From Escherichia coli (GTDB lineage: Bacteria; Pseudomonadota; Gammaproteobacteria; Enterobacterales; Enterobacteriaceae), in assembly GCF_002854065.1 (NCBI RefSeq), contig NZ_CP024147.1: a DNA stretch of 64,000 nucleotides; one strand, 5' to 3'. Made by a program: the position numbers and the translations under genes. The notes under the pieces were generated by a model that saw only the letters and a program-made list of their open reading frames with translations, did not search any database and was not told where the DNA came from. Positions 1-16,966 of the stretch are shown here, piece after piece (position 1 is the stretch's first letter; each line of letters begins with the position of its first letter).

Positions 1-520
1 GGTTCGAGTTCTGCTGTGATAACGGAGAGAGACTGCGTGTCACGTTCGCGCTGGACTGCTGTGATCGTGAGGCACTGCACTGGGCGGTCACTACCGGCGG
101 CTTCAACAGTGAAACAGTACAGGACGTCATGCTGGGAGCGGTGGAACGCCGCTTCGGCAACGATCTTCCGTCGTCTCCAGTGGAGTGGCTGACGGATAAT
201 GGTTCATGCTACCGGGCTAATGAAACACGCCAGTTCGCCCGGATGTTGGGACTTGAACCGAAGAACACGGCGGTGCGGAGTCCGGAGAGTAACGGAATAG
301 CAGAGAGCTTCGTGAAAACGATAAAGCGTGACTACATCAGTATCATGCCCAAACCAGACGGGTTAACGGCAGCAAAGAACCTTGCAGAGGCGTTCGAGCA
401 TTATAACGAATGGCATCCGCATAGTGCGCTGGGTTATCGCTCGCCACGGGAATATCTGCGGCAGCGGGCTTGTAATGGGTTAAGTGATAACAGATGTCTG
501 GAAATATAGGGGCAAATCCA
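1..520 (+). mobile_element. IS2 (IS3 family), right-hand portion cut by the window edge
   Basis: The transposase frame is open from the window edge. The sequence TGGAAATATAGGGGCAAATCCA ending at 520 is the IS2 right terminal repeat as I recall it. Confidence 0.9.
3..509 (+). CDS. insD: IS2 transposase OrfB (InsD), C-terminal part (partial)
   Basis: The translation [27 protein letters not shown]...WLTDNGSCY...[11 protein letters not shown]...[31 protein letters not shown] shows a DDE integrase core and is recognised as IS2 InsD. Confidence 0.9.
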
Positions 521-1063
521 TTGACCAAGTACTTTTGTTAAAGCGGTAACTCTGCCAAGCAATTCTGCCGACTGATTTTTTGCCTGCTGATAAAGGTCCA
601 TAAAACATATCTTCTTGGCTGGAAAACGTTCCATCAAAGATTGATATTCTTCTAGCTCGCCCAGAATCACAGCAAGTTTGGCTTCATGAATAACTTTTTC
701 TTTTTCTATATCGACCAAGAAACGATCAGCCCCCGGTGCCGACGGTTTCATTTTTTCGGGCATAGCGATAAGCCGCGAATTCTTTGGCAACGCTCTTGGT
801 ATGAAAATAGTTGAATGAAAACTTTCCGTTTTCTTATACACACTTCTGGACTTGCCACCACTACTCTCAATTTTATAGATGAAGCCCAGGGACTCTAACC
901 GAAGAAGTTGTCGGTGAATGAATTTTCTAGCCTCAGTAACTTCTGCGTAGTCATCTGTAATCTTCAGCAAAGCATCCCTGAGATGGATAGCGCAGAACTC
1001 ATTAAAACCCATCTCAATCAATAACTTATACATATATGGATGCAACTTTACTGCAGATTTCAT
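521..1063 (-). pseudogene. Hypothetical winged-helix-like protein with its 3' end replaced by the IS2 insertion
   Basis: ORF 434..1063 runs straight into the IS2 terminal repeat, so the last ~28 codons ([10 protein letters not shown]...) are IS2 sequence. The N-terminal segment RKFIHRQLLRLESLGFIYKIESSGGKSRSVYKKT looks like a wHTH wing. The gene is divergent from an XRE regulator. Confidence 0.55.
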
Positions 1064-1161: not shown

Positions 1162-1473
1162 GTGGCTCACCCAAACCCGATACCCGAGAGGCTCAAAGCG
1201 GCCAGAACAAAAGCTGGGATCACTCAGAAGGAATTGGGGATCCGAATTGGCATGGAACCCAGCTCGGCGAGTGGTCGTATGAACCATTATGAGAAAGGGA
1301 GACACACTCCTGACATTGATACCCTCAAGCGTATGGCTGATGAACTTGGGGTACCAATTAACTATTTCTTTTGCGAGAACGACATAACTGCAGAATTAGC
1401 ATGTCTGATAGCTAAAATGACTGAGCAGCAGCAGATTGAATTGATTGCTATGCTAAAGAAAAATCAATCTTAG
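1162..1473 (+). CDS. XRE (Cro/C1) family helix-turn-helix transcriptional regulator
   Basis: PERLKAARTKAGITQKELGIRIGMEPSSASGRMNHYEKGRHTPDIDTLKRMADELGVPINYFF is a canonical HTH_3 pattern. The protein is 103 aa. Confidence 0.8.
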   Translation: MAHPNPIPERLKAARTKAGITQKELGIRIGMEPSSASGRMNHYEKGRHTPDIDTLKRMADELGVPINYFFCENDITAELACLIAKMTEQQQIELIAMLKKNQS

Positions 1474-1861
1474 ATTTTTCACAGAACTCATACCTGAATA
1501 ATATCAGGGTTTCTTAGATATCCTTGACCTGCGACGTATACGCCTCCTCGAAGGGTATCCGCAATTTCTTATCTCATGTATCAGCTACCACCCAAACCGA
1601 ATCTTCATCAGTTCCGGACGTCATGTAATAAACCATAATTCTGGAAATCAAGGAAGCAAATCTAATTGTGTAAATGACCCCGTTGTTTCAGTAATTGAGT
1701 AACATGCCATAAACGGGATTAATAAAGACTTCATTTTAATTTCAACGCCCTTATCAGCCTGAAGTAAAATATGACTTGCAGATCACGTGAATACCTAAGC
1801 TGGAAGAGTATCTTTTACTATTGCAGTCCAACGTGAGAAAACAACAAGTCAACAAGGATTC

Positions 1862-4474
1862 ATGATGCTCAGTAGCGAGTTTTTGCGCTTTTTTCAAACC
1901 TTAAACACAACAGAAGTCCCCAGTAATGTCAGGAAAATAGCGAATCTTGTGTGGGATAACCTAGATGATATAACCCCATTGGGCACTTCGCAGGGTCAGC
2001 GAGTCAGGCGCATTGTCTCTCTGGCACAGTCTGCATGGGATGCCCTCAGTACAGAAGTACAGCCACTACCAGAGCAGACCGCTGAACGCGTCTCCACGTT
2101 TAGTCGGCTGAGAAAGATATCTGTTGGACCATTTAGAGGGTTTGCAAAGCAAGAAGAATTTGATCTGGATTCACGTCTAGTGCTGATTTACGGCCCCAAT
2201 GGTACTGGGAAGTCAAGTTTCTGCGAAGCGCTTGAATATACATTACTGGGCAATGTGGCTGAGGCCGAAAGCAAGCGTTTCCGGAATCAAAACGACTATT
2301 TTAAAAATGCACATGTCAATCGGTTTTCTGTTCCAGAGATAATTGGTGTCGGAGATCATGGGCAGGATGTGTCGATTGAGAATAACGAAGCACAGTATCG
2401 CTTTTGCTTTGTTGAAAAAAATCGTATCGACAACTTTTCAAGAATCGCGGCTCTGGTCCCAACAAGGCAGACTGAACTTATCTCAACACTATTCGGGCTA
2501 GATAGTTTTAATGATTTTGTGCGAAATTTTACATCAGATATTGATGCCAGATACATCGATCTAACAGGCGTAAAAGCAGGTCAGTTGGCAGAAAAGCGCA
2601 AGTCTCTTCTGGCTGCACAGCAGCAATTGGCGACAGGTCAGGCTGCCCTGGAAGGGTTGGCATCAGAGGAACAGACACTGGCTTCTGTTTATCGTGAAGG
2701 CCTGTCTTACCAGCAGATGCTAGCTGAGTTAAAAGGGGATGAACAAAATATCGGAACCATCCGACAGCTTGAAACAGAGTTACAAACGCCACTTCCGAAT
2801 CAGAGTAGCCTGACATCTGCTATTTTGAACGATATAAGTAGCGCTGTTGAAACGGCACTTATAGATCTGGAAAGCAAGCAGAAGCAACTGGCAGAGGCAA
2901 GTCAGCAGGTTTCATATAAAAATTTATTTGAAGCAGTTGTCCAGTTACAGGGTACCAGCCCGGAACAATGCCCTGCATGCCATACCCCTCTTCAGCAAAC
3001 CGCCAAAAACCCCTACAGCCATGCCTGTGATGAATTGCTAAAGCTTGAGTTTCTGTCGACATTACAGGGAGAAATAACTCAGCTGGAAAAATTAATTGGC
3101 CAGTTGATGTACAGTGTTTCACAAGTAATCGGCACATGCTGTCAGTTTTTGCCACATGACAATGCTCTTGAAGTATTCCGAAATGAAAATGGCATCACTT
3201 TATGGCGTAATCTGCGGCAGCAAACAGGAGATGGCATAACTCCCTGGGCTCAGCTTGAAAAACAGGTGTGGCATCTGGAGGGAGAAGATAAAAAAATAGA
3301 GGAAGCAACTAAATTGCGAGAATCCCGTCAGCGGGATCTTGCGAGAATGCGTGAATCTGATCGCCAGATAACGATTTTGCAGACAAGAAGAGATACGATA
3401 GAAAAAACCATCTCTGCGGCTCAGTTGTTGATTGGCAACTTTGATACTGAAAACAGGCAGCTAATTGAAGAAGTTGCTCACGAAGAAGACATTGTAAGGA
3501 AAAACAAAGCAATTTCAGAAGCGTATTCCCGGTTCGTTTTACAGCTGAACGCCTATAAAGAGGGATTACCTCAGAGACTTGTAGCGAATCTTGGGGATCA
3601 CATTGTCACTCTCTACAACGCATTTAACCGTAATGACCCCCCGGGAGAAAAGCTAGCAGGTATCAAACTACCTCTGCTGCAGAATCAGCGACTGGAAGTA
3701 GCGTTTCAGAATAATCCAACGCAACTATTCGATGCCCTGCATGTACTTAGTGAGGGGCATGTACGCTGTATAGGGCTGGCTATTTTGTTGGCAAAAAACA
3801 TTAATGAACAGTGTCCACTTTTGATATTTGATGACCCGGTCAATGCTATTGATGACGATCACAGAGAATCGATTCGGAGAACGTTGTTTGAAGATGCTTT
3901 CTTTGCTGAAAAACAAATCATTCTGGCCTGCCATGGAGAGGAATTCTTCAAAGACATCCAGAATTTATTGCCAGCGCCGGTTGCCGCACAGTCCAAGACT
4001 TTCAGCTTCTTACCGCGTCTTGACGAATTGCATATCCGCGTAGATTTTAACTGCGCTCCCAGGAACTATATTATTTCTGCACGAGGGCATTATGAGCGTA
4101 ATGAGATTCGGGAGGCGCTTGCAAAATGCAGACAGTCACTTGAATCGTTGATGAAGGGGAGAGTCTGGCGATATGTAAATAAATATGGTGATGGTAATCT
4201 TAGTCTCAAGCTAAGGTCAGCAACGGCACCTATTGAGTTACGTAACTTGTCGGATCAATTGAAGAAACAGATCAATAAAGCTGAGTTCCGTGACCAAAAT
4301 AAAAACGCCGTATTCACACCAATTGATGTGTTAACTGGGCTAAGTGGAGAATCACGAGAATGGCGCTATCTAAATAAAGGTACGCATGAGGAAGACGGCA
4401 GGGCTGAGTTTGATCGAGCAACAGTAGAAACCATGATTTCTGCCCTTGAGGCGCTCGATCAGGCTGTGAGTTAA
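1862..4474 (+). CDS. Rad50/SbcC-type ABC ATPase with a long coiled-coil insert, a CxxC hook and a C-terminal RloC/PrrC-like domain (candidate anticodon nuclease / abortive-infection protein)
   Basis: ATPase motifs: Walker A G111PNGTGKSS, signature-like L629SEGH, Walker B LLIFDD658, D-loop AIDDDH and H-loop ILACHG. About 510 heptad-rich residues lie between them, with C370PAC373 at the midpoint. The C-terminal ~170 aa carry KYGDGN and LNKGTHEED. Confidence 0.7.
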   Translation: MMLSSEFLRFFQTLNTTEVPSNVRKIANLVWDNLDDITPLGTSQGQRVRRIVSLAQSAWDALSTEVQPLPEQTAERVSTFSRLRKISVGPFRGFAKQEEFDLDSRLVLIYGPNGTGKSSFCEALEYTLLGNVAEAESKRFRNQNDYFKNAHVNRFSVPEIIGVGDHGQDVSIENNEAQYRFCFVEKNRIDNFSRIAALVPTRQTELISTLFGLDSFNDFVRNFTSDIDARYIDLTGVKAGQLAEKRKSLLAAQQQLATGQAALEGLASEEQTLASVYREGLSYQQMLAELKGDEQNIGTIRQLETELQTPLPNQSSLTSAILNDISSAVETALIDLESKQKQLAEASQQVSYKNLFEAVVQLQGTSPEQCPACHTPLQQTAKNPYSHACDELLKLEFLSTLQGEITQLEKLIGQLMYSVSQVIGTCCQFLPHDNALEVFRNENGITLWRNLRQQTGDGITPWAQLEKQVWHLEGEDKKIEEATKLRESRQRDLARMRESDRQITILQTRRDTIEKTISAAQLLIGNFDTENRQLIEEVAHEEDIVRKNKAISEAYSRFVLQLNAYKEGLPQRLVANLGDHIVTLYNAFNRNDPPGEKLAGIKLPLLQNQRLEVAFQNNPTQLFDALHVLSEGHVRCIGLAILLAKNINEQCPLLIFDDPVNAIDDDHRESIRRTLFEDAFFAEKQIILACHGEEFFKDIQNLLPAPVAAQSKTFSFLPRLDELHIRVDFNCAPRNYIISARGHYERNEIREALAKCRQSLESLMKGRVWRYVNKYGDGNLSLKLRSATAPIELRNLSDQLKKQINKAEFRDQNKNAVFTPIDVLTGLSGESREWRYLNKGTHEEDGRAEFDRATVETMISALEALDQAVS

Positions 4475-4607
4475 TATATGTAAAGTGGTCTATAAAATTG
4501 GCCACAACATGAGAATTACTGTTCGTTGGTTCCTGGCACAGAGCGTCTGTCAGATTTAGTTTAGCTCTGTGTCATACCAGTGGTAGCTCAAGTCGCGGCT
4601 AATGCAA

Positions 4608-5336
4608 TTAATCACTGAATACCAACGAATCTAATACACCTTGTCCACTATGAACTCCTCCTTCAACTGACTCTGCTGATTTGCTACGGATCAAATACCC
4701 AGCAAAACTGTGATCAGCGCTAGATGCATTGTTACCTATCTGGACGGAGAACATTCCTAGTTCGCTGACCAGATCAGTAACCTGATATAACTCCCCTTTA
4801 CGGACAACCAGAGAAGGTGTAGCTCGCGGGACAGGATGTATCCGACGCATGAACGACCAGGATTGATATTGCAGCGGGTCAAGTCTTGCCAGTTTTAACT
4901 GGATATCAGAGCCAAACAGACAATGCCCACCCCCTTCGCCCTGGTTTTTGAGAACCCATGAATCAGAAGGAGACTCTTTTACAATGCTGATTGTATCAGG
5001 GCTAACAGGAAGCATTTCGCCCAACACCATTTTTATGATATCAACCTCTTCCGGCTTCAGTCCAAAAGCAATCAGTTCATCGCACCCCAAATGAGAGAGC
5101 AACATTTGTACTCGCTTACTTGTCGCAAGTTGCTGAGCGACTGTTGCATTCACCGCAACTCGGTGCTGCTCAATCAATACTCGCGTGGCCATTAGCGTCT
5201 GGCAACACTCCTTCTCATTGAGACTGGCGGCTTCATAATCTGAGTATTGATATCCGGCACGTAAGTAAACAGAAGTAGTATGGGTGTATGAACTTGTCAT
5301 TGTTTTGACATTTATCAAATATATTCGATTATGCAT
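4608..5336 (-). CDS. Hypothetical protein (242 aa; the start may be Met12 at 5303)
   Basis: This is a long ORF convergent with the ATPase gene and divergent from arsR. I recognise no motif and see no TM segments. Confidence 0.45.
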   Translation of the reverse strand: MHNRIYLINVKTMTSSYTHTTSVYLRAGYQYSDYEAASLNEKECCQTLMATRVLIEQHRVAVNATVAQQLATSKRVQMLLSHLGCDELIAFGLKPEEVDIIKMVLGEMLPVSPDTISIVKESPSDSWVLKNQGEGGGHCLFGSDIQLKLARLDPLQYQSWSFMRRIHPVPRATPSLVVRKGELYQVTDLVSELGMFSVQIGNNASSADHSFAGYLIRSKSAESVEGGVHSGQGVLDSLVFSD

Positions 5337-5393: not shown

Positions 5394-5747
5394 ATGATGT
5401 CGCTTACTTCCCTACAACTCTTTAAGAATCTGTCTGATGAAACACGTCTGGGTATTGTTCTCATACTCAGAACTATGGGGGAGTTGTGCGTATGTGATCT
5501 TTGCACTGCACTTGATCAATCACAGCCTAAGATCTCCCGGCATCTGGCTATGTTGCGAGAAAGTGGGATTTTGCTTGATAGTAAACACGGTAAATGGGTT
5601 CATTACCGGTTATCCCCACACATTCCTTCATGGGCTGCACAGATTATTGAGCAGGCCTGGTTAAGCCAACAGGACGATCTTCAGGCCATCGCCCGTAAAC
5701 TGGCTTCAGTCAACTGCACTAACAGCAGTAAGGCTATTTGTATTTAA
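5394..5747 (+). CDS. arsR: ArsR arsenite-responsive repressor (R773 type)
   Basis: The 117-aa protein has the ELCVCDLC As(III) site and the LDQSQPKISRHLAMLRESGIL HTH. It is the first gene of arsRDABC. Confidence 0.95.
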   Translation: MMSLTSLQLFKNLSDETRLGIVLILRTMGELCVCDLCTALDQSQPKISRHLAMLRESGILLDSKHGKWVHYRLSPHIPSWAAQIIEQAWLSQQDDLQAIARKLASVNCTNSSKAICI

Positions 5748-5793
5748 AAATTTGCCTGAATATATATGATTTCCCACATATGAGGTATTGAGA

Positions 5794-6156
5794 ATGAAAA
5801 CGCTAGCGGTATTCGACCCGGCAATGTGTTGTAGCACCGGTGTCTGCGGTACTGATGTCGATCAGGCTCTGGTTGATTTTTCCGCGGATGTGCAATGGCT
5901 GAAACAACGAGGTGTTCAGGTAGATCGTTTCAATCTGGCACAGCAACCGATGAGCTTTGTCCAGAACGAGAAAGTTAAAGCATTTATTGAGGCTTCTGGT
6001 GCGGAAGGGCTGCCATTACTGTTACTGGATGGCGAAACAGTGATGGCCGGGCGTTATCCGAAACGGGCTGAACTTGCACGGTGGTTTGGAATTCCGCTGG
6101 AGAAAGTAGGATTAGCGCCTTCAGGCTGCTGCGGTGGTAATACTTCTTGTTGTTAA
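5794..6156 (+). CDS. arsD: ArsD arsenic metallochaperone
   Basis: MKTLAVFDPAMCCSTGVCG carries Cys12/13/18, and the C-terminal tail is GCCGGNTSCC. The protein is 120 aa. GAGG lies 8 nt before the ATG at 5794; the track start at 5788 is a TTG. Confidence 0.93.
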   Translation: MKTLAVFDPAMCCSTGVCGTDVDQALVDFSADVQWLKQRGVQVDRFNLAQQPMSFVQNEKVKAFIEASGAEGLPLLLLDGETVMAGRYPKRAELARWFGIPLEKVGLAPSGCCGGNTSCC

Positions 6157-6173
6157 GTATGTCAGGAGGACAT

Positions 6174-7925
6174 ATGAAATTCTTACAGAACATCCCCCCT
6201 TATCTGTTTTTTACTGGTAAAGGAGGCGTTGGTAAAACCTCTATTTCCTGCGCCACGGCGATCCGTCTGGCAGAACAGGGTAAACGAGTGCTGCTGGTCA
6301 GTACCGATCCGGCCTCAAACGTAGGCCAGGTCTTTGGCCAGGTTATTGGCAATACTATTCAGCCAATAGCCACTGTTCCTGGATTGTCGGCACTTGAGAT
6401 TGATCCTCAGGCCGCTGCGCAACAGTACCGGGCCAGAATCGTTGACCCTATTAAAGGTGTCCTGCCTGATGACGTCGTTAGCAGCATCAACGAACAACTG
6501 TCTGGTGCATGCACAACAGAGATTGCGGCTTTTGATGAGTTTACCGGATTACTGACAGACGCCTCTTTGCTGACCCAGTTTGACCATATCATCTTTGATA
6601 CCGCGCCAACCGGCCATACTATTCGCCTTCTCCAGTTGCCAGGCGCCTGGAGCAGCTTTATTGACAGCAATCCCGAGGGCGCATCCTGCCTCGGCCCGAT
6701 GGCGGGGCTGGAAAAACAGCGTGAACAGTATGCCCATGCCGTTGAAGCACTGTCCGACCCAGCGCGTACCCGCCTGGTTTTAGTTGCCAGACTGCAAAAA
6801 TCCACCCTGCAAGAAGTCGCCCGAACTCATTTAGAACTCGCCGCAATTGGCCTTAAAAATCAGTACTTGGTCATTAATGGCGTTCTGCCCAAAACTGAAG
6901 CGGCAAACGATACACTGGCTGCGGCTATATGGGACCGTGAACAGGAGGCGCTGGCCAATCTTCCTTCTGACCTTTCCGGTCTGCCAACTGACACGTTATT
7001 CCTCCAACCACTCAATATGGTCGGCGTGGCTGCATTAAGTGGGCTTCTCTCCTCTCAGCCTGAGGCAGCATCATCTTCTGAAGAATACATTCAGCAACGA
7101 CCTGAAATTCCGTCGCTCTCAGCGTTAGTCGATGATATTGCCCGTAACGAACATGGTCTGATAATGCTAATGGGCAAAGGCGGTGTGGGGAAAACCACGA
7201 TGGCGGCAGCCATTGCCGTCAGACTGGCCGAAATGGGATTTGATGTCCATCTGACCACCTCAGATCCAGCAGCACACCTCAGCACAACCCTGAACGGTAG
7301 CCTTAACAATCTGCAGGTCAGTAGAATCGATCCTCACGAGGAAACAGAACGCTATCGTCAGCATGTTCTTGATACCAAGGGTGGAGAACTGGATGAAGCG
7401 GGTAAACGCCTGCTGGAAGAAGATTTACGCTCTCCTTGTACCGAAGAGATTGCGGTCTTCCAGGCCTTTTCACGGGTGATTCGTGAAGCGGGTAAGCGCT
7501 TCGTGGTCATGGATACGGCACCCACCGGGCATACCCTACTGCTGCTGGATGCCACCGGGGCGTATCACCGCGAAATTGCTAAGAAAATGGGCGATAAAGG
7601 CCATTTCACCACGCCAATGATGCAGCTTCAGGACCCGGAGCGAACCAAAGTGTTACTGGTCACGCTGCCGGAAACCACGCCCGTGCTTGAGGCGGCAAAT
7701 TTGCAGGCCGACCTTGAACGCGCAGGGATTCATCCCTGGGGCTGGATTATCAATAACAGCCTTTCCATTGCGGATACCCGTTCGCCGCTGCTTCGTCTGC
7801 GGGCGCAACAGGAACTTCCGCAGATCGAGAGTGTTAAACTCCAGCATGCCAGTCGCGTAGCTCTTGTTCCTGTACTGGCGTCAGAACCGACCGGCATCGA
7901 CAAACTCAAACAACTCGCTGGTTAA
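6174..7925 (+). CDS. arsA: ArsA arsenite-stimulated pump ATPase
   Basis: The 583-aa protein has two halves, each with GKGGVGKT and DTAPTGHT. The metalloid-site cysteines are in [14 protein letters not shown] and RSPCTEE. AGGAGG precedes the ATG at 6174. Confidence 0.95.
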
Positions 7926-7972
7926 TTATTGTCATTACTCGGGGCAGCTTTGCTGCCCTTTCGGGAGGTTAT

Positions 7973-9262
7973 ATGTTACTGGCAGGAGCCATTTTTATCC
8001 TGACCATCGTGTTGGTTATCTGGCAGCCAAAGGGATTAGGCATTGGCTGGAGCGCCACGCTGGGTGCCGTACTGGCTCTGGCATCGGGTGTGATTCATAT
8101 CGCCGATATTCCGGTGGTGTGGAATATCGTCTGGAACGCCACGGCCACCTTTATTGCCGTCATTATCATCAGTCTGTTGCTGGATGAGTCCGGCTTTTTT
8201 GAATGGGCTGCACTGCACGTTTCCCGCTGGGGCAATGGGCGTGGACGTCTGCTATTTACCTATATTGTTCTGCTCGGCGCGGCGGTGGCGGCATTGTTTG
8301 CCAACGATGGCGCGGCGTTAATTCTGACGCCGATCGTTATCGCCATGCTACTGGCGCTGGGATTCAGTAAAAGCACCACGCTGGCTTTCGTGATGGCCGC
8401 AGGGTTTATTGCCGATACCGCCAGCTTGCCACTTATCGTATCGAACCTGGTCAATATCGTTTCGGCTGATTTCTTCAAACTGGGATTCACGGAGTATGCG
8501 TCAGTTATGGTGCCGGTGGATATTGCCGCCATTGTCGCCACGCTGGTGATGCTGCATCTTTTTTTCCGCAAAGATATCCCGCCCACTTATGAGCTGGCGC
8601 GACTGAAAGAACCCGCAAAAGCCATCAAAGATCCTGCGACGTTCAGAACCGGCTGGGTTGTGCTCCTCCTTCTGCTGGTCGGTTTTTTTGTCCTTGAGCC
8701 GATGGGGATCCCTGTGAGTGCGATTGCGGCAGTGGGGGCGGCAATCCTGTTTGCGGTGGCCAAAAAAGGTCATGGTATTAACACCGGTAAAGTGCTGCGC
8801 GGCGCGCCCTGGCAGATCGTGATCTTCTCACTGGGGATGTATCTGGTGGTATACGGGTTGCGTAACGCCGGTCTGACGGATTATCTCTCTGACGTGCTGA
8901 ACGTACTGGCAGATAAAGGACTGTGGGCCGCGACGCTGGGGACAGGATTCCTGACTGCATTCCTCTCTTCTATCATGAACAATATGCCGACCGTACTGGT
9001 TGGCGCACTGTCGATTGATGGCAGCACCGCGACCGGCGTTATCAAAGAAGCGATGATTTATGCCAACGTCATTGGCTGCGATCTGGGGCCGAAAATCACC
9101 CCTATTGGTAGCCTGGCGACACTGCTCTGGCTGCACGTGCTTTCACAGAAGAATATGACAATCTCGTGGGGATACTACTTCCGCACCGGGATTATCATGA
9201 CCCTGCCTGTGCTGTTTGTAACGCTGGCTGCGCTGGCGCTACGTCTCTCTGTCACTTTGTAA
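7973..9262 (+). CDS. arsB: ArsB arsenite/antimonite efflux permease
   Basis: This is a 429-aa polytopic membrane protein sitting between arsA and arsC, and the sequence is recognised as ArsB. Confidence 0.95.
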
Positions 9263-9274
9263 TGAGATTCTGAT

Positions 9275-9700
9275 ATGAGCAACATCACTATTTATCACAA
9301 CCCAGCCTGCGGCACCTCGCGTAATACGCTGGAGATGATCCGCAACAGCGGTACCGAGCCGACCATTATTCTTTACCTTGAGAACCCACCTTCGAGGGAT
9401 GAATTGGTCAAACTCATTGCCGATATGGGTATTTCAGTACGAGCGCTGCTGCGTAAAAACGTTGAGCCTTACGAGCAACTGGGTCTTGCAGAAGATAAAT
9501 TTACTGACGATCAGCTCATCGACTTTATGTTGCAACACCCAATTCTGATTAACCGTCCGATCGTGGTTACGCCGCTGGGAACCAGACTGTGCCGTCCTTC
9601 TGAAGTGGTTCTGGATATCCTGCAGGATGCGCAGAAAGGGGCTTTCGCTAAGGAAGACGGTGAAAAGGTCGTTGATGAAGCAGGAAAACGGCTGAAATAA
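9275..9700 (+). CDS. arsC: ArsC glutaredoxin-type arsenate reductase (full length, copy 1)
   Basis: MSNITIYHNPACGTSRNTLEMIRNSG... carries the catalytic Cys12. The protein is 141 aa. Confidence 0.95.
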   Translation: MSNITIYHNPACGTSRNTLEMIRNSGTEPTIILYLENPPSRDELVKLIADMGISVRALLRKNVEPYEQLGLAEDKFTDDQLIDFMLQHPILINRPIVVTPLGTRLCRPSEVVLDILQDAQKGAFAKEDGEKVVDEAGKRLK

Positions 9701-9703
9701 ATA

Positions 9704-9727
9704 ATAAGGGGGCGAATGCCCCCTTAT
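9704..9727. terminator. Bidirectional hairpin terminator between arsC and the convergent acetyltransferase gene
   Basis: ATAAGGGGGCGAATGCCCCCTTAT forms a GC-rich 8-10 bp stem flanked by A/T runs. Confidence 0.7.
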
Positions 9728-9734
9728 TCGTACC

Positions 9735-10271
9735 TCAGAGCATCATGCCTGAATCCGATGGTAACGTGCTGTTCCCTTCGCCCAGATTTCGTTGCAGCAA
9801 CACTGTGTCAAGCCAACGACCATGCTTGAAGCCAATATTTTTCAGCGTACCAATCTCAGTAAATCCAACCTGCTGATGGACTTTCAGCGAACCTTGATTA
9901 TTGCTATCGCCGACAATAGCAATCATCTGCCGATAGCCGTGAGTTTCTGCCCAGGCAATGACGTAGCGCAGCAACGCTTTTCCTGTCCCCTGACGCTGTG
10001 CGTCCGGGTGAATATAAATCGAATCTTCGAGAGTGTGGCGGTAGGCGTAGCGTTCACGGTAACGAGTGAGATAACAATACCCGATAACCTTTTCTTCCTC
10101 TAACGCGACAACCCACGGTAGCGCCTGATTGCGGATCTTTTTCAGGCGGGTAAGCATCTCGTGGGTATCCGGAGGTTCAGTTTCAAAGCTGGCGGTACCG
10201 TGAAGAACATGATGGGCGTAGATATCGCGTATAGCGGGGATGTGCTTTTCTTCTGCGTTAACGATTTTCAT
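9735..10271 (-). CDS. arsN: GNAT N-acetyltransferase of the phosphinothricin-acetyltransferase (PAT/MddA) family; ArsN1-like by context
   Basis: IRDIYAHHVLHGTASFETEPP... and QRQGTGKALL...GYRQMIAIVGDSNNQGSLKVHQQVGF resemble PAT/YncA. The gene is adjacent to ars genes. Confidence 0.65.
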   Translation of the reverse strand: MKIVNAEEKHIPAIRDIYAHHVLHGTASFETEPPDTHEMLTRLKKIRNQALPWVVALEEEKVIGYCYLTRYRERYAYRHTLEDSIYIHPDAQRQGTGKALLRYVIAWAETHGYRQMIAIVGDSNNQGSLKVHQQVGFTEIGTLKNIGFKHGRWLDTVLLQRNLGEGNSTLPSDSGMML

Positions 10272-10435
10272 TGTTCTGTTCCCGTTGGCATCTTTTTCAA
10301 GGTTACTTGAAAATCCTGAGGAAAGGTAAATACAAAAGCTTATGACCCAATAAGCAGGCTAATCTTCAATCCCATCTTTTGTTTTCATTCATGCAGGGAG
10401 ACAAATATGTGCTTCCAGTATCCTTATTTTTTATG

Positions 10436-10479
10436 TTACCTTTTCCGTTATGTCTAAAATGACATAACGGAAAAGGTAA
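10436..10479. promoter_or_regulatory. Perfect 19+19 bp palindrome (6-bp spacer) overlapping the ribosome-binding site of the TauE-family gene; candidate operator or RBS-sequestering hairpin
   Basis: The sequence is TTACCTTTTCCGTTATGTC-taaaat-GACATAACGGAAAAGGTAA. It ends 4 nt before the ATG at 10484. Confidence 0.6.
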
Positions 10480-10483
10480 ACCC

Positions 10484-11308
10484 ATGTCCTCAGAATCAAA
10501 ACGGAACGGAAAAGGTTTTTTATCAGGCACGTTAATCGGTGCTTTAGGCGGCTTAATTGGCCTCGGTGGCGCTGAGTTCCGCCTTCCCGTCCTGATGGGT
10601 AGTTTCAAAATGCCGACGCTTGAAGCGGTTATTTTTAACAAAGCGATGAGCCTTACTGTTGTCGCTGTTGCTTTGATATTCCGCACAAAATCCATCGCCG
10701 TCGACCAGCTGTTTGCTCATCTTGATATTGTCATCAATTTGCTGGCCGGGAGCCTTATAGGTGCATGGTGGGCAGCAGGAAGAGCCATAAAAATGTCCCG
10801 TATTTGGCTGGACAGAACCATTCTGCTCCTGCTTGTTATCCTGTCATTCGTCATGTTTTCAGAAGCATTGATGCCTCTGCATGATAGCTCCGCTGGATTA
10901 TTCCAGCCCGGAATCGCGACCATTATTGCGGGTGTTATTGCGGGTGTTATTGCGGGTTTCTTCATCGGGAATGTTGCTGCTTTGCTGGGTGTTGCAGGGG
11001 GAGAGCTCCTGATACCAACTATCGTTATCCTTTTTGGGGCTGACATTAAACTGGCTGGCAGTTTGTCACTCATGATCAGTTTACCGACGATGATTGTGGG
11101 GTTCTCTCGCTACACTAATGCAGATGCTTTCCAGATCCTGAGAAAAGAGAAAAAACTTTTTGTGTGGATGGTCATCGGTTCCGTTATAGGTGCCGCTATT
11201 GGGGGCCTTATGCTCGGTATGTTCCCGGTAAGAGTACTTATGACTCTGTTAGGCGCGGTACTTCTTATTTCCGCGATCAAAACCTTTAAGCATACCCGGC
11301 AAAGATAA
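10484..11308 (+). CDS. TauE/SafE (DUF81) family anion-exporter-like membrane protein
   Basis: The 274-aa polytopic protein has internally duplicated G-rich motifs: GALGGLIGLGGAEFRLPVLMG and LLGVAGGELLIPTIV. Confidence 0.7.
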   Translation: MSSESKRNGKGFLSGTLIGALGGLIGLGGAEFRLPVLMGSFKMPTLEAVIFNKAMSLTVVAVALIFRTKSIAVDQLFAHLDIVINLLAGSLIGAWWAAGRAIKMSRIWLDRTILLLLVILSFVMFSEALMPLHDSSAGLFQPGIATIIAGVIAGVIAGFFIGNVAALLGVAGGELLIPTIVILFGADIKLAGSLSLMISLPTMIVGFSRYTNADAFQILRKEKKLFVWMVIGSVIGAAIGGLMLGMFPVRVLMTLLGAVLLISAIKTFKHTRQR

Positions 11309-11370
11309 TAGCCGTTTACGCTTTGGACTATTCCGCATTACAGAGAAAATGATTTCGAAAAGGTATCAGA

Positions 11371-11739
11371 ATGAAAAAGAATCCCCTTAAATCAAACTTA
11401 ATCTTAGTCAGACCGAGGATCTATATTAACGACAACATCTCGCTGGGGCCGGGGAAGGTTGACCTTTTAAGGGCGATTGATGGCTTTCACTCTCTTTCTG
11501 CGGCAGCTAAAGATTTGGGGATACCTTATAAAAAAGCATGGCTCTTAATTGACACTTTGAATAAAGGGATTGGTCAGCCAGTTGTAACCACTTCCACTGG
11601 TGGTAACAAGGGCGGTGGTACAGTTCTGACGCCATTGGGGCGTAGCCTGCTGATCTGGTATGACCAGGCCGAGGCCCACCTCAATGAGCAATCTCAGCAA
11701 CAGTTAATCGAACTTGAAAAGATTCTTTTTGGAAAATGA
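11371..11739 (+). CDS. ModE N-terminal-domain-like wHTH regulator lacking Mop/TOBE ligand domains
   Basis: SLSAAAKDLGIPYKKAWLLIDTLNKGIGQPVVTTSTGGNKGGGTVLTPLGRSLL parallels ModE SISQGAKDAGISYKSAWDAINEMN...ATGGKGGGGAVLTRYGQRL. The protein is only 122 aa. Confidence 0.7.
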   Translation: MKKNPLKSNLILVRPRIYINDNISLGPGKVDLLRAIDGFHSLSAAAKDLGIPYKKAWLLIDTLNKGIGQPVVTTSTGGNKGGGTVLTPLGRSLLIWYDQAEAHLNEQSQQQLIELEKILFGK

Positions 11740-11784
11740 CAGAGACCTTTGTTATCCATCGGGAAAATAGAGTGACAGCAATGC

Positions 11785-11810
11785 ATGAAGGGGGCTAATG
11801 CCCCCTTCAT
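11785..11810. terminator. Bidirectional hairpin terminator between the modE-like gene and the convergent arsA2
   Basis: ATGAAGGGGGCTAATGCCCCCTTCAT has the same AAGGGGGC-NAAT-GCCCCCTT core as the hairpin at 9704. Confidence 0.65.
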
Positions 11811-11812
11811 TA

Positions 11813-13570
11813 TTACTTCGCCATTTCTTCCAGCAGGTCAATACCAACCGGCTCTTCGCTCTGTAGCGCTGTTAATGCAATACGCTTTGCATACTGCTCT
11901 TCCACATCAGAGATGAGAGGCAGCTCGCGGTTAGCTCTGGTCTTCAGGAAAGGTGAAGACGGCTCAGCAGCTGCCAGGCTGTTATTCACAACCCATGCCC
12001 ACGGCTCAATGCCAGCCCGACGCAGATCCTGCTGCAGGTTAGCGGCTTCCAGTACAGGTGTCGTTTCGGCAAGCGTCACGATAATCACCTTCGTCTTCTC
12101 CGGGTCCTGCAATTGCATCATTGGCGTCATCACATGGTCATGTGTTTGCCCCATCTGGCGCACCATTTCCCGGTGATAGGCTCCAGTCGCATCCAGTAGC
12201 AGAAGTGTGTGACCCGTTGGCGCGGTGTCCATAATGACAAAATGATCGTCTGCCTCTTTGATTATCCGCGAGAATGCCTGGAAGACGGCGATCTCTTCAG
12301 TACATGGTGAGCGGAGATCTTCTTCCAGCACCGCCAGCCCCTCAGCGTCTAATCCTTTGCCCTGATTCTCCAGTACAAAACGGCGATAACGCTCTGTCTC
12401 CACCTTCGGATCGATACGGCTGACCTGCAGATTTGGCAGCGAGCCATCCAGCGTGTAAGACAGATGTGCTGCCGGATCGGACGTGGTCAGATGGACTTTA
12501 TGACCGCGTTTTGCCAGCGATACCGCGACCGATGCTGCAACAGTCGTTTTGCCCACGCCGCCTTTCCCCATCGTCATTACCAGCCCTTTGCCTGTCAGAC
12601 TGAGTTCATCCACTAACGAGGAAAGTTTCGGTAAATCCAGAGCATTTAGCGTTGTATTGGAGAGAGACAGTGGCGCTTTGCTCTCTGTTAATAACTCTCG
12701 CAGGGCTTCCAGACCGACCAGATTAAATGGCTTCAGAGACAGCTGCGAGCGGGGAAGATTAACCAGATTATCAGGCATTGCCTGTAATGCTTTTTCTTCC
12801 CGAGCCAGAATACTTTGCGCCAGTGGATCATTTTCACCGGCAAACGGTGGCAGCACACCATTAATGGCAAGGTGTTGATGCTGCAAACCAATAGCAGAAA
12901 GCTCATCGTGCGTATGAGAAACCTCTTTCAGCGTTGAAGCCTGAGCTCGGGCAACCAGCACTAAGCGTGTGAGAGCTGCGTCGGACAGCGCTTTAACCGC
13001 ATCGGAGTACTGGTGCTGTTGTTTCTCAAGCCCTACCAGAGGTCCAAGGTTTGCAGCGGCATCAGGGTTCGCTTCGAGATAACCGCTCCAGGCTCCCGGC
13101 AATTCAAGCATGCGGATGGTGTGACCGGTTGGCGCGGTATCAAATACGATATGGTCATATTTTCCCCGCAGCTCATGATTGGTCAGCAGACCAGTAAACT
13201 CATCAAACGCAGCGATTTCCGTGGTGCATGAGCCGGAAAGCTGCTCTTCAATGCTGCTGACCACATCGGCTGGCATCAGCCCGCGAACAGGGTCGAGCAC
13301 ACGGTCACGATAGGCTTGCGCTGCAGCCATCGGATCAACTTCCATCGCGGCAAGATTTTCTACAGTACTGATATCTGTGATTCGGTGGCCGATAGTCTGG
13401 CTAAATACCTGGCCGACATTGGAAGCCGGATCGGTACTCACCAGAAGCGTTCTCTTACCCTGATCGGCCAGCCATACTGCAGTAGCACAGGCCAGGGATG
13501 TCTTACCCACTCCACCTTTACCAGTGAAGAAGATGAACGGGGGAATGTCTTTTAAAAATGGCATATTCAT
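11813..13570 (-). CDS. arsA: ArsA-family ATPase, second divergent copy lacking the Cys172 equivalent
   Basis: The protein has two GKGGVGKT / DTAPTGHT halves. SGSCTTE and RSPCTEE are present, but ANPDAAANLGP aligns with [11 protein letters not shown] of copy 1. GAGGAG precedes the ATG at 13570 (MNMPFLKD...). Confidence 0.9.
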   Translation of the reverse strand: MNMPFLKDIPPFIFFTGKGGVGKTSLACATAVWLADQGKRTLLVSTDPASNVGQVFSQTIGHRITDISTVENLAAMEVDPMAAAQAYRDRVLDPVRGLMPADVVSSIEEQLSGSCTTEIAAFDEFTGLLTNHELRGKYDHIVFDTAPTGHTIRMLELPGAWSGYLEANPDAAANLGPLVGLEKQQHQYSDAVKALSDAALTRLVLVARAQASTLKEVSHTHDELSAIGLQHQHLAINGVLPPFAGENDPLAQSILAREEKALQAMPDNLVNLPRSQLSLKPFNLVGLEALRELLTESKAPLSLSNTTLNALDLPKLSSLVDELSLTGKGLVMTMGKGGVGKTTVAASVAVSLAKRGHKVHLTTSDPAAHLSYTLDGSLPNLQVSRIDPKVETERYRRFVLENQGKGLDAEGLAVLEEDLRSPCTEEIAVFQAFSRIIKEADDHFVIMDTAPTGHTLLLLDATGAYHREMVRQMGQTHDHVMTPMMQLQDPEKTKVIIVTLAETTPVLEAANLQQDLRRAGIEPWAWVVNNSLAAAEPSSPFLKTRANRELPLISDVEEQYAKRIALTALQSEEPVGIDLLEEMAK

Positions 13571-13590
13571 CAGTGATAGCTCCTCTGGAA

Positions 13591-13953
13591 TTAAGGCATA
13601 CGTGGAATGCTGCAGCAACGCGGTTGCGTACTGTCTTCACTCCAGTCCTGAGTTAGCGGAATATCTGCCCAACGGGCGATATCTTCACGAGTCGGCAGTT
13701 TGCCTGCCATCACCAGCTTGCCGTCGAGCAAGGTGACAGGGAGGGATTCCATCCCTGATGTGTTCATAAACTCTTTGATTACAGGGGTATTCAGGAACTG
13801 CTGCGGGTTTTTCGCAAGGCTGTAGCGCTGAATATCAACGCCATTCTTTTTCGCCCATTCGGCGCTGGCATTCCATTTGACGGCTTCGTCGCTCACCACA
13901 ACGCTGCTGGTTGCGCAGCAGCCTGCTGCTTCAAAGATCTCAATTTTTGACAT
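13591..13953 (-). CDS. arsD: ArsD-family metallochaperone, second divergent copy (Cys12-Cys13 kept, residue 18 is Val)
   Basis: The 120-aa protein begins MSKIEIFEAAGCCATSSVVV. Its thioredoxin-like core aligns to ArsD (LPVTLLDGKLVMAGKLPTREDIARW). The C-terminus is PRCCSIP. Confidence 0.8.
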   Translation of the reverse strand: MSKIEIFEAAGCCATSSVVVSDEAVKWNASAEWAKKNGVDIQRYSLAKNPQQFLNTPVIKEFMNTSGMESLPVTLLDGKLVMAGKLPTREDIARWADIPLTQDWSEDSTQPRCCSIPRMP

Positions 13954-13958
13954 GGATT

Positions 13959-14002
13959 GTTTACCTCAGTGTTTAGTCATTTGGCTTTACACTGAGGTAA
14001 AC
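13959..14002 (-). promoter_or_regulatory. 13-bp perfect stem-loop in the sigma-arsD2 spacer whose 3' arm contains the arsD2 Shine-Dalgarno
   Basis: On the mRNA strand the sequence is GTTTACCTCAGTG-(18 nt)-CACTGAGGTAAAC, followed by AATCC-ATG. No U-run follows. Confidence 0.5.
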
Positions 14003-14028
14003 GAAGGTGGTGGGAAAAAGATGCGCGA

Positions 14029-14574
14029 TTAATTCATTTTTTTGTGGCAGCAGACAAAAGATGTGTCATCCGCCTCAATCTGGCAGAGTTCTGTCATCGT
14101 CTCTTTCAGGTGTTTTCTGGCCCGAAGTAGTCGGGATTTAAACGCTGTAAGCGTGATTCCCCATTCATCGGCCAGGGACTGCTGGGGACGCCGGTTAAGG
14201 TCGGACTCTTCAATCAACCACCGCTCATCTTCGGGTAAAGCCTGTAATGTTTCAGGCAGGCAAATATCCAGTGTTGAGATTGCATCAAGGGATGCGTCTG
14301 TTAATAGGGCATCTTCTTCCAGCTCAACAAACGCCCTGGTGGTTCGGTACTCATCAATCAGCAGATTCCTTGCTACCCGATACAACCAGGCTCGCGGATT
14401 TTCCATCTCACAAAAAATGTCTGAATGGGCTCGGGCACGCAGGAAAAGGTCTTGCAGAAGGTCTGCTGCTTTTTCGCTATCGCCTGTCTTCGATATCAGA
14501 AAGCGAGAAAATTCGCCTTCATGCTGCCGCCAGAACACGCTCATACAGCTGTTGAATGCTGTTATGTCACTCAT
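14029..14574 (-). CDS. ECF-type sigma-70 family factor with a C-terminal Cys-x10-Cys-Cys extension
   Basis: Region 2 is DLLQDLFLRA...AWLYRVARNLLIDEYR. Region 4 is LPEDERWLIEESDLNRRPQQSLADEWGITLTAFKSRLLRARKHL. The tail is LCQIEADDTSFVCCHKKMN. The likely ATG is at 14574, 8 nt after the arsH stop. Confidence 0.8.
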   Translation of the reverse strand: MSDITAFNSCMSVFWRQHEGEFSRFLISKTGDSEKAADLLQDLFLRARAHSDIFCEMENPRAWLYRVARNLLIDEYRTTRAFVELEEDALLTDASLDAISTLDICLPETLQALPEDERWLIEESDLNRRPQQSLADEWGITLTAFKSRLLRARKHLKETMTELCQIEADDTSFVCCHKKMN

Positions 14575-14582
14575 ACTAACCT

Positions 14583-15293
14583 TCAAATTTTGCTCTGATT
14601 AACCCGTCGGGAAAGTTCTTCTGCAGACTCTTTTCGTTCACTGTAGCGATCGACAAGATAGGCAGAATTTGCCCGGGTCAACAATGTAAACTTCATCAAT
14701 TCTTCCATCACATCCACGATGCGGTCGTAATATGGTGACGGTTTCATACGTCCATCGTCATCAAACTCCTGCCAGGCTTTTGCTACCGAGGACTGGTTCG
14801 GAATAGTGATCATTCTCATCCAACGACCAAGCACGCGCATCTGGTTGACTGTGTTGAATGACTGGGAACCTCCACACACTTGCATAACAGCCAGAGTTTT
14901 TCCCTGAGAAGGACGAACAGCACCTTCAGATAATGGTATCCAGTCAATTTGTGCCTTCATAATACCAGTCATCGCTCCGTGTCGTTCCGGAGAGCACCAC
15001 ACCATTCCTTCAGACCAGCGGACCAGTTCACGCAACTCCATAACTTTTGGATGTGACTCCGGTGCATCATCAGGAAGTGGAAGGCCAGATGGATTAAAAA
15101 TGCGGACTTCTGCGCCCATCGCAGTTAACAACCGACCAGCTTCCTCTGTCGCCAGTCGACTGTATGAGCGCTCACGAACTGAGCCATAAAGCATTAGTAT
15201 ACGAGGGGGGTGAGATATTGTCGGTATCCCCATTTTTTGCTCAGTTATTGCAGCATCAAATAAATCAGGAACTATATTATTTAGCTTATTCAT
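14583..15293 (-). CDS. arsH: ArsH NADPH-dependent FMN reductase / organoarsenical oxidase
   Basis: [18 protein letters not shown]...[23 protein letters not shown] is typical of ArsH. The protein is 236 aa. Confidence 0.9.
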
Positions 15294-15391
15294 TTTTTAT
15301 TTTCCCTATAGATTCGGGATCTTAGTAGGATGGATTCAGACGGTTCGATGCAGCTTTCGTCAATCATGACAGTTATGAGTTTTTCGGTTAC

Positions 15392-15715
15392 TTATCCATT
15401 TTTGCCAGCGGGTTCCGTAACATCTGTTTTACTGTTTACACAGCACTCTTCACGTAAGAATTCGATGATAGCTTCCAGTATTTCGTATTGAGAGACGCAC
15501 ATGAGCGTTCGACTCTCCCGGTTTTGTGTGACGAGTCCTACTGATACTAAGGCTGAAATATGATGACTTAACGTTGATGAGGGAATGCCAAGCTGCTTTT
15601 GCAATTCACCTACAGGCAAACCTTGTTCTCCAGCTTTTACAAGATGTTTGAATATGAACAAACGGGTCGGGTGACCCAGCTCTTTTAGTGCTTTAGCTAC
15701 TTCTTCCAATTGCAT
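15392..15715 (-). CDS. arsR: ArsR/SmtB-family repressor, second type (C-terminal vicinal Cys pair, no CVC site)
   Basis: HPTRLFIFKHLVKAGEQGLPVGELQKQLGIPSSTLSHHISALVSVGLV is an ArsR-type wHTH. REECCVNS lies near the C-terminus. The protein is 107 aa. Confidence 0.85.
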   Translation of the reverse strand: MQLEEVAKALKELGHPTRLFIFKHLVKAGEQGLPVGELQKQLGIPSSTLSHHISALVSVGLVTQNRESRTLMCVSQYEILEAIIEFLREECCVNSKTDVTEPAGKNG

Positions 15716-15736
15716 GTGACAACCCTCTGTCTAATG

Positions 15737-15795
15737 ATATTTCGATAATACCAGAAATATCTTGACCAGAATTATATTTCGATTATTCTAGAAAT
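15737..15795. promoter_or_regulatory. Divergent promoter region with two tandem 22-24 bp operator-like repeats, 37 bp apart
   Basis: ATATTTCGATAATACCAGAAAT is at 15737-15758 and ATATTTCGATTATTCTAGAAAT at 15774-15795. Each has the internal dyad ATTTC-N10-GAAAT. TTGACC at 15762-15767 lies between them. Confidence 0.6.
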
Positions 15796-15820
15796 GTAGA
15801 TTTTGTCAAGAGGGTTTAGT

Positions 15821-16954: not shown

Positions 16955-16966
16955 AGCATTACAACA

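Follow-up and report, generated by a model that had tools for sequence, protein, structure and literature searches.

An ABC ATPase gene with a zinc hook and a HEPN-fold tail

Between gorA and dinQ on the chromosome of Escherichia coli CUWW06 lies an island of ~24 kb, which we analysed within a 64,000-nucleotide stretch of contig NZ_CP024147.1 (henceforth the window). Our subject is the open reading frame (ORF) at positions 1862..4474 of the window, on the plus strand like all of its sub-features given below, which encodes an 870-residue Rad50/LmuB-like ATP-binding cassette (ABC) ATPase with a zinc hook and a HEPN-fold tail. The RefSeq start of this ORF is one codon later, and the annotation reads merely 'AAA family ATPase'. 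An initial annotation, made from the sequence alone, had described a Rad50-like ABC ATPase that stands alone, carries a hook midway along its coil and ends in a non-ATPase tail, and this description is borne out by profile searches, an AlphaFold2 (AF2) model and the genomic context. We found 953 homologues of the protein at E<1e-5 and scored conservation in a close set (n=114, at least 56% identity) and in a divergent set (80 homologues at 26-50% identity to the query; 81 sequences with the query).

The protein begins with a helical domain (residues 1-75, 1862..2086; helices 2-13, 21-32 and 43-61 in the AF2 model) that gave no match in Pfam, PADLOC, PHROGs or the PDB sequences and whose R47 is at least 95% conserved in the divergent set. 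The ABC head motifs follow. Walker A is G111-PNGTGKSS-119 (2192..2218), with G111, N113, G114, G116, K117 and S119 each at least 95% conserved in the divergent set, a level also reached by all five residues of the ABC signature L629-SEGH-633 (3746..3760) and by H691 of the H-loop I687-LACHG-692 (3920..3937). Walker B (LLIFDD658, residues 653-658), the D-loop P-V-N-A-I-D664 and D-D-H667, placed by motif position and conservation, together span 3818..3862. The positions given in the initial annotation for GPNGTGKSS (111), LSEGH (629), LLIFDD (653-658), ILACHG (687), KYGDGN (774), R810, K814 and H842 in LNKGTHEED (837) all proved correct.

Between K117 and S630 lies an insert of 513 residues, mainly long helices in the AF2 model (237-277, 319-349, 384-429, 461-530 and 532-574), which form a coiled coil of ~340 residues. 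Its ascending arm (residues 237-362, 2570..2947) is defined by these helices and by LmuB and SbcC-like profiles that align over it, while the descending arm (residues 384-574, 3011..3583) comprises the last three helices. At the apex sits the zinc-hook motif C370-P-A-C373 (2969..2980). It is the only CxxC in the whole protein, a stronger statement than that of the initial annotation, which had called it the only one in the insert and had placed it at the K117/S630 midpoint; that midpoint is indeed 373.5. In the query and 80 homologues, down to 26% identity, C370 and P371 are 100% conserved and C373 98.8%. The AF2 model, built on an alignment of the 114 close homologues (mean predicted local distance difference test score, pLDDT, 82), comprises an N-terminal three-helix domain, an ABC head, long helices at 237-574 broken at CPAC and a C-terminal helical domain. 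The initial annotation had suggested looking in such a model for a folded-back coiled coil with an apical Cys pair, and the model bears this out in so far as long helices flank that pair and break at 363-383, the position of CPAC.

In Pfam, the protein matched SMC_N (9e-16), AAA_23 (1e-10) and AAA_13 (4e-10), the last at 39.4 bits against a gathering cut-off of 36 and with its best stretch at residues 104-549, covering Walker A and the coiled coil. The similarity to AAA_13, RloC or PrrC profiles expected in the initial annotation was found for AAA_13 over this stretch, and not for the tail, which matched no RloC or PrrC model. The top PADLOC matches were Lamassu LmuB models (3.3e-26 and 6.5e-26) across most of the head and coiled coil, with 90.7 bits versus 38.9 bits for the RloC-type model PDC-S06, whose match is confined to residues 620-701 (8.8e-11). 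NCBIfam gave only sub-threshold matches, to SMC-related, RecF and Rad50 models; together with PHROGs, it detects SbcC/Rad50/RecF-like features. Searching with the whole model, Foldseek retrieved Rad50 (7zr1, 4e-8), cohesin and condensin heads, and Lamassu LmuB (9hqu_A, 4.3e-7), and also matched the Lamassu structures 9uxh_F and 9ux7_A. Judged by profile score, the head is nearer to LmuB than to RloC.

Two conserved motifs in the C-terminal HEPN-fold domain

The C-terminal domain (residues 725-870, 4034..4471) is a HEPN-fold domain. An exhaustive tail-profile search found 299 clusters (at 50% identity) that carry it; all full-length matches were proteins of 853-920 residues with the tail at the C-terminus, and no other architecture was found. 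A tail-only word-indexed homologue search returned just fragments of the same family. The tail gave no significant match in Pfam, PADLOC, PHROGs or the PDB sequences, the sole match of its profile to the latter being a designed helical protein. In Foldseek the top matches of the tail were HEPN entries at probabilities of 0.90-0.97, with E-values that are not significant. When 40 divergent tails were compared singly with Pfam, the most frequent matches, each of them weak, were to DUF4145 (5 members), DUF7014 (2), HEPN PF05168 (1) and a DZIP3 domain (1), and there was none to AAA_13. The nuclease domains found in PrrC and in RloC have themselves been placed in the HEPN superfamily (PMC3710099).

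In the 114 close homologues nearly all positions are conserved, which makes that set misleading. Only nine tail residues are at least 95% conserved in the divergent set: R757, E761, W769, W834, L837, N838, G840, H842 and F850, with R757, N838 and H842 at 100% and E761 at 99%. The constrained polar residues of the aligned tails thus form two motifs, R757-x3-E761 and N838-x3-H842. Conservation and comparison with PrrC and RloC mark R757-Q-S-L-E761 (4130..4144) as a candidate catalytic Arg/Glu pair, and the same two lines of evidence pick out R835-Y-L-N838-K-G-T841-H842 (4364..4387). In the subfamily of the query this second motif reads R835-x2-N838-x2-T841-H842; R835-x6-H842 fits the HEPN R-x4-6-H motif, and H842 sits 28 residues before the C-terminus. 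R835 is present in 97% of the close subfamily versus 11 of 81 sequences (14%) in the divergent set, which retains N838 and H842. We suggest R757, E761, N838 and H842, plus R835, as the candidate catalytic site.

This assignment replaces most of the earlier one. Inside the HEPN domain lies a variable insert (residues 776-830, 4187..4351), conserved nowhere beyond the close subfamily, that holds R810 and the edge of K774-YGDGN. The initial annotation had taken R810 for the catalytic Arg and K774-YGDGN for the LARP motif of PrrC. Residue 810 is Arg in only 5 of the 114 close homologues, and is variable or gapped in divergent members; K774 and Y775 are conserved at 46% and 50% in close homologues, are likewise variable or gapped in divergent ones, and lie downstream of R757/E761. 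Given the low conservation of both, the '+36' spacing of K774 and R810 is a coincidence, and the apparent lack of an equivalent of PrrC E324 (K814 at that place) was an artefact of anchoring on R810, the real pair being R757/E761. Its choice of H842 as the key histidine agrees with the full conservation of this residue. A further triad, R794-x3-[ED]798-x43-H842, agrees with the spacing of RloC, and close homologues conserve it at 100%; we rejected it, as R794 is at 36% in divergent members, with R794 and E798 both at most 36% conserved there.

Resemblance of the tail motifs to PrrC and RloC

In the alanine scan of EcoPrrC by Shuman, R320, N321, E324, R349, N352 and H356 were essential and S355 was dispensable; N321 is Asn or Gln among homologues, the catalytic triad is R320/E324/H356, and the LARP motif 284-KYGDSNKSFSY-294 is limited to some PrrC proteins and absent from RloC (PMC3025547). 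In RloC, the coiled coil is Rad50-like and bears a CXXC hook, and the triad is Arg-X3-Glu-X36-52-His, Ser often preceding the His (PMC2610378). What the initial annotation had stated about both nucleases agrees with these papers (PMC3025547, PMC2610378). The four polar invariants of the 870-residue family, R757, E761, N838 and H842, match PrrC R320, E324, N352 and H356 in type and i/i+4 spacing, and the PrrC counterparts of Q758, R835 and T841 are N321, R349 and S355. R757-x3-E761 and T841-H842 are present, invariant or nearly so, beside a Glu-to-His spacing of 80.

As a genuine RloC for comparison we used WP_001223964.1 (locus L003), which matches AAA_13 over positions 1-713 of 713 (4e-209) and PADLOC PDC-S06 end to end (4e-174), also matches the PADLOC PrrC model through its nuclease domain, and has relatives named 'wobble nucleotide-excising tRNase' by JGI. 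It carries C330-EFC, A-R723-K-L-V-E727-S and Y-R-F-I-N-K-Y-S-H772, all invariant in its family. Side by side, the tail motifs read S/C-R-Q-S/A-L-E-S and W-R-Y-L-N-K-G-T-H in the 870-residue family and ARK[LV]xES and YRFINKYSH in the RloC family. In the heads, the signatures are LSEGH in the 870-residue protein, LSEGE in RloC and LSKGE in PrrC; the spacing of Walker B, D-loop and 'DxH' equals that of PrrC (DD216 ... D222 ... H225) and RloC (VDDPVSSFDSNH); and a BLASTP alignment with the genuine RloC covers LSEG...DDPV...D..H (E 0.001) and Walker A. The PADLOC PrrC model was not matched by the 870-residue protein, and short RloC tail fragments match PF13166, whereas tail fragments of the 870-residue family do not. 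Of the RloC-type nuclease proposed in the initial annotation, the HEPN fold and the Arg-x3-Glu ... Asn-x3-His pattern stand, and a profile link of the tail to RloC or PrrC does not. The resemblance to RloC thus lies in architecture, fold superfamily and active-site motifs, and formal tests did not place the protein in the RloC family.

The two families also meet in one genome: an island on the Klebsiella aerogenes plasmid pWP5-W18-CRE-01_1 holds, 3.3 kb apart, a genuine RloC and a copy of the 870-residue family truncated by IS3 (L003 2178-4634 and 7911-9371). The same island carries a PDDEXK nuclease, a restriction endonuclease and a HEPN/Toprim-associated protein.

The ATPase gene moves as a single-gene cassette

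The gene is preceded by a conserved 5' leader of ~95 nucleotides (1766..1861, plus strand) that moves with it. In local blastn comparisons, copies in E. coli A33, E. coli 165 and Morganella align from 1766-1776 to 4474-4477 and no further; the mobile unit is a single ORF with its ~95-nucleotide leader. Among more than 11 contexts inspected there was no recurrent neighbour gene. The contexts include a P4-like satellite (Vreelandella), a position that follows an integrase and an HsdS fragment and precedes AIPR (Methylovorus), the gene alone (Cellvibrio), adjoining prophages (Plesiomonas and Morganella), a position after a type IIG restriction-modification (R-M) system (Buttiauxella), a place next to a TerB/BrxCD-like/helicase system (TerB-ATPase-helicase; E. 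coli A33), an overlap with a DUF4011 helicase-nuclease gene (metagenome) and a KfrA plasmid-like contig. In E. coli 165 and 14 other strains the gene is at the end of a prophage, where it is flanked by DinI/SRAP on one side and by invertase/tail-fibre genes on the other.

Of 5,426 complete E. coli genomes, 20 have the gene. It is carried by 31 plasmids, 21 of them conjugative, and by none of 50,697 phage records. Its hosts are Gamma- and Betaproteobacteria (such as Methylovorus, Cupriavidus and Polaromonas), and in Alphaproteobacteria (Rhizobium, Tistrella) it is plasmid-borne. In Vreelandella venusta, the ATPase homologue has 181 bp upstream of it a DUF6650 gene of 244 residues (L004 7085-7819; matches to PADLOC PDC-M68A at 4e-24 and to Cap4-like endonuclease effectors). 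As this arrangement was met in a single context, the DUF6650 gene probably belongs to a neighbouring system and is less likely to be an occasional partner.

The island and its XRE-headed slot

Upstream of the ATPase gene lies an XRE/C-protein-like helix-turn-helix (HTH) gene (1162..1473, plus strand; HTH_3 1.4e-10, PADLOC 'Control_protein' 4.9e-26), so that the position noted in the initial annotation, behind an XRE regulator, within an island and with no adjacent R-M genes, holds. Upstream of it on the minus strand is a gene without family match (434..1063), whose product has 189 residues in intact elements and 209 residues here, where its 3' end runs into an insertion sequence, IS2. The two belong to a backbone formed by a divergent operon, in which a DEAD/DEAH helicase gene (just left of the window) lies beyond the gene for the 189-residue protein, and by the XRE gene. 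This backbone recurs at ~80% nucleotide identity on IncHI1B-type plasmids (L016 5590-7952, L017 5582-7944). Directly after the XRE stop codon the slot is filled by a TrlF-like ATPase with SIR2, by type II CBASS (cyclic-oligonucleotide-based anti-phage signalling system) genes or by the 870-residue ATPase. The XRE gene is thus part of a mobile-element backbone and not of the cassette, and the XRE-headed position looks like a regulator-headed hotspot for defence cargo. Since the slot is shared with CBASS or TrlF and SIR2, a defence role of the ATPase is supported by association.

The IS2 copy (window 1-~520) is inserted exactly at the junction of the genes for the 189-residue protein and the helicase, and uncouples the helicase; in strain 100416, as on the IncHI1B-type plasmids, the two genes overlap. 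The 388 bp between the XRE gene and the ATPase gene (1474-1861) contain a terminator-like hairpin at 1493-1508 and, in a consensus scan, no consensus sigma-70 promoter; only their last ~95 nucleotides are common to other copies of the cassette. 

Downstream, on the minus strand, a 242-residue ORF (4608-5336) matches the ATP-binding domain of eukaryotic-type glutathione synthetase (PF03917, 4e-28) over profile positions 168-362 only and appears to be a truncated or stand-alone fragment between the ATPase gene and the ars operon. Two arsenic-resistance clusters follow (~5394-16955), arsR-D-A-B-C on the plus strand and arsA/arsD/sigma-70/arsH/arsR on the minus strand plus a permease, and then a site-specific integrase (17453-18757), five hypothetical genes and dinQ (23787-23870). 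The hypothetical genes at window 18750-23014 and at L002 13811-18852 in a sister strain, which include that for a conserved protein of ~150 residues (WP_032288336.1), lie alongside the integrase/helicase backbone. On the Citrobacter plasmid (L016 1476-5472), genes of similar size to these hypothetical genes (about 490, 690 and 155 residues) occupy the corresponding place, with no PADLOC match for the three L016 proteins.

A proposed single-protein defence enzyme on the RloC plan

We read the 870-residue protein as a single-protein anti-phage enzyme of the abortive-infection type, built on the plan of RloC and stemming from a separate family, and put the probability of this reading at about 0.6. 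The mechanism that we propose is modelled on RloC, Rad50, Lamassu and dimeric HEPN RNases. In RloC, the zinc hook and the DNA-dependent ATPase act as an internal nuclease switch (PMC3458546) and the nuclease is activated in vivo by DNA breaks (PMC3874168); the toxicity of PrrC requires dimerisation of its NTPase heads (PMC3025547), and HEPN RNases are typically dimeric (PMC13092281). By analogy, two chains of the 870-residue protein would pair through the C-P-x-C zinc hook and the ATP-dependent engagement of their Rad50/LmuB-like heads. The heads and coiled coils would sense aberrant DNA, such as ends or replication/packaging intermediates, during infection or DNA damage, and an ATP/DNA-driven conformational change would release or juxtapose the two C-terminal HEPN domains. 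The R757/E761/N838/H842 site, with R835, would then cut RNA without metal. The likeliest substrate would be tRNA anticodon loops, as for RloC and PrrC, and their cleavage would halt translation and abort infection.

Several observations weigh against this reading. The correspondence of the motifs to PrrC and RloC was spotted by eye, post hoc, and the HEPN matches in Foldseek lack significant E-values. R835, the Arg of the HEPN motif, is not conserved over the wider family, and the Glu-to-His distance of 80 exceeds the 36-52 of RloC, a family-specific insert being responsible. Tail-only scans of Pfam and PADLOC matched no RloC or PrrC model; in hmmsearch, the hidden Markov model of the tail scored no better against the RloC C-domain than 2000 shuffles did; and hhalign between the two domain profiles gave a probability of 0.2-0.3%. 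With the insert (776-825) removed, hhalign does pair R757 with R723, E761 with E727, N838 with N768 and H842 with H772, along with the last helices, at a score of 11.9 that was equalled by 51 of 200 column shuffles and thus stands at chance; when the RloC profile was widened with 47 genomes, 35 of 100 and 27 of 100 shuffles scored as high. Finally, which RNA is cut, which DNA acts as trigger and that infection is aborted are all posited by analogy with the systems named above, the presumed RNA target being the weakest link.

The protein could be a diverged true member of RloC, sharing its ancestry over the whole length and, like it, excising the wobble nucleotide of tRNA. The three defining features of RloC (ABC motifs, a CxxC-hooked coiled coil and a C-terminal Arg-x3-Glu...His) are present in kind, AAA_13 is matched just above its gathering score, PDC-S06 is matched at 620-701, and hhalign registers all catalytic residues once the insert is taken out. 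We nonetheless consider such descent unlikely: profile-profile scores are at chance, the best AAA_13 stretch stops at residue 549 and tail-only scans miss this family, whereas the genuine RloC matches it over its full 713 positions and the PrrC model besides, which the 870-residue protein does not. LmuB also outscores PDC-S06 (90.7 versus 38.9 bits), the protein has an extra N-terminal domain and a ~50-residue insert in the nuclease domain, and both families co-occur 3.3 kb apart on one plasmid. The protein may instead be an independent fusion of an LmuB-type sensor with a HEPN RNase, a 'single-chain Lamassu' and not a diverged RloC, an origin that we propose only tentatively. Head engagement in an SMC-like dimer would then gate the fused RNase without the kleisin-like LmuC or a separate LmuA; the active site would have converged on the R-x3-E / N-x3-H of PrrC and RloC, the canonical HEPN Arg being dispensed with in most members; and the RNA target could differ from the tRNA anticodon loop.

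Other explanations deny the tail its role as effector or the protein its autonomy. Were the HEPN tail non-catalytic, binding nucleotide, RNA or protein, the protein might act on DNA in SbcC/RecN-like repair or plasmid maintenance, or signal in trans. Some HEPN domains are non-catalytic (PMC3710099), R835 is unconserved in the wider family, PHROGs and NCBIfam see SbcC/Rad50/RecF-like features, and many conjugative plasmids carry the gene; yet PrrC needs the residues that correspond to the invariant R-x3-E and N-x3-H for its RNase activity, no SbcD/Mre11-type partner is found, and the gene occurs sporadically (in 20 of the 5,426 E. coli genomes) and amid defence or mobile elements, so that we regard this as quite improbable. 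An orphan or degenerate LmuB sensor, with a separate effector (for instance LmuA) elsewhere or lost and with the tail as a docking or regulatory domain, would account for the LmuB models at the top of the defence-library matches, the Foldseek matches 9hqu_A, 9uxh_F and 9ux7_A, the CPxC hook as in LmuB and the Cap4-like nuclease gene upstream in one genome (Vreelandella). Against it, genes like LmuA or LmuC do not recur as neighbours among more than 11 contexts, and what moves is a single ORF; the protein is ~220 residues longer than a typical LmuB of ~650, by virtue of its N-terminal domain and HEPN tail; and the tail is found in every full-length member with invariant R/E/N/H, unexpected for a mere docking domain, which makes this reading very improbable. 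To a multi-gene system with the XRE gene, the 189-residue protein and the DEAD/DEAH helicase we give hardly any credence, even though these genes adjoin in the E. coli island and the XRE protein resembles R-M control proteins. The same module, at ~80% nucleotide identity, is kept on plasmids with CBASS or TrlF and SIR2 in the slot, which argues against a system with those neighbours; ATPase homologues occur elsewhere without any of the three genes, and homology between copies ends ~95 nucleotides upstream of the ATG. We rejected all three genes as system parts, since the backbone carries other cargo and the cassette ends at that point.

Although ABC-HEPN fusions, RloC among them, are already known, the 870-residue family is widespread, uncharacterised and missed by RloC, PrrC and Lamassu models. 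If active, it would be a widespread single-gene defence candidate, with 299 clusters at 50% identity behind the bare label of 'AAA family ATPase'. The RloC principle, a Rad50-like DNA-damage sensor in cis with a translation-disabling RNase, would then extend to a second lineage with a head nearer to Lamassu, and would offer, in one compact protein, a means of studying how an effector is switched on by a zinc hook and by the engagement of SMC-like heads. The revised set of catalytic residues shows which ones to mutate, R810 being an uninformative control, and the XRE-headed, cargo-swapping slot should be useful for mining further systems.

Comparison with known systems

Other fusions of an ABC ATPase with a C-terminal HEPN domain are the APECO1_4465 and ERFG_01251 families, of which APECO1_4465-type genes lie in prophage-derived islands (PMC3710099). 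By description, these families are like the 870-residue one in domain order, and several copies of the latter are likewise prophage-linked. E. coli APEC O1 lacks a homologue of the 870-residue gene at the DNA level, so APECO1_4465 is not a close relative; the APEC O1 region chosen by position for APECO1_4465 contained no prophage ATPase. From Rad50 and SbcC the family differs in having no Mre11/SbcD-type partner beside the gene in the inspected loci, and in its sporadic rather than housekeeping distribution.

Lamassu LmuB offers the best profile match for the head and coiled coil as well as a structural match (9hqu_A). Many LmuB proteins carry 'CPxCG or similar', and a typical LmuB has ~650 residues (PMC10586767). 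The CPxC-type hook is shared, as are a short coiled coil and, presumably, the sensing of aberrant DNA. Unlike the 870-residue family, in which a putative HEPN effector is fused in cis, Lamassu needs a separate LmuA effector and usually LmuC; HEPN is not among the Lamassu effector domains listed in review (PMC10586767).

PrrC, too, joins an ABC NTPase to a C-terminal HEPN-type RNase, and its essential residues have identical spacing within the motifs. It differs in lacking the coiled coil and the hook, both present in the 870-residue protein, and in being kept silent by the type Ic hsd locus in which it sits, whereas no R-M genes adjoin 1862..4474. Its LARP motif lies upstream of R320, while KYGDGN lies downstream of R757/E761 and is unconserved, so that the likeness of KYGDGN to LARP is fortuitous.

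Set against RloC, the 870-residue protein has an extra N-terminal domain of ~75 residues, a Glu-to-His distance of 80, a tail outside the RloC and PrrC profiles, and a head and coiled coil that score higher against LmuB and SMC_N than against AAA_13. In plan the two are alike. Each is a single polypeptide of similar size (658-897 residues in RloC, 870 here) in which an ABC ATPase with an LSEG-type signature and DDPV...D..H is interrupted by a coiled coil whose apex bears a CxxC hook, and each ends in a HEPN-superfamily domain with R-x3-E-S and [YW]-R-[FY]-[IL]-N-K-x-[ST]-H. Both are mostly without linked R-M systems and are laterally transferred as a self-contained gene (PMC2610378, PMC3458546).

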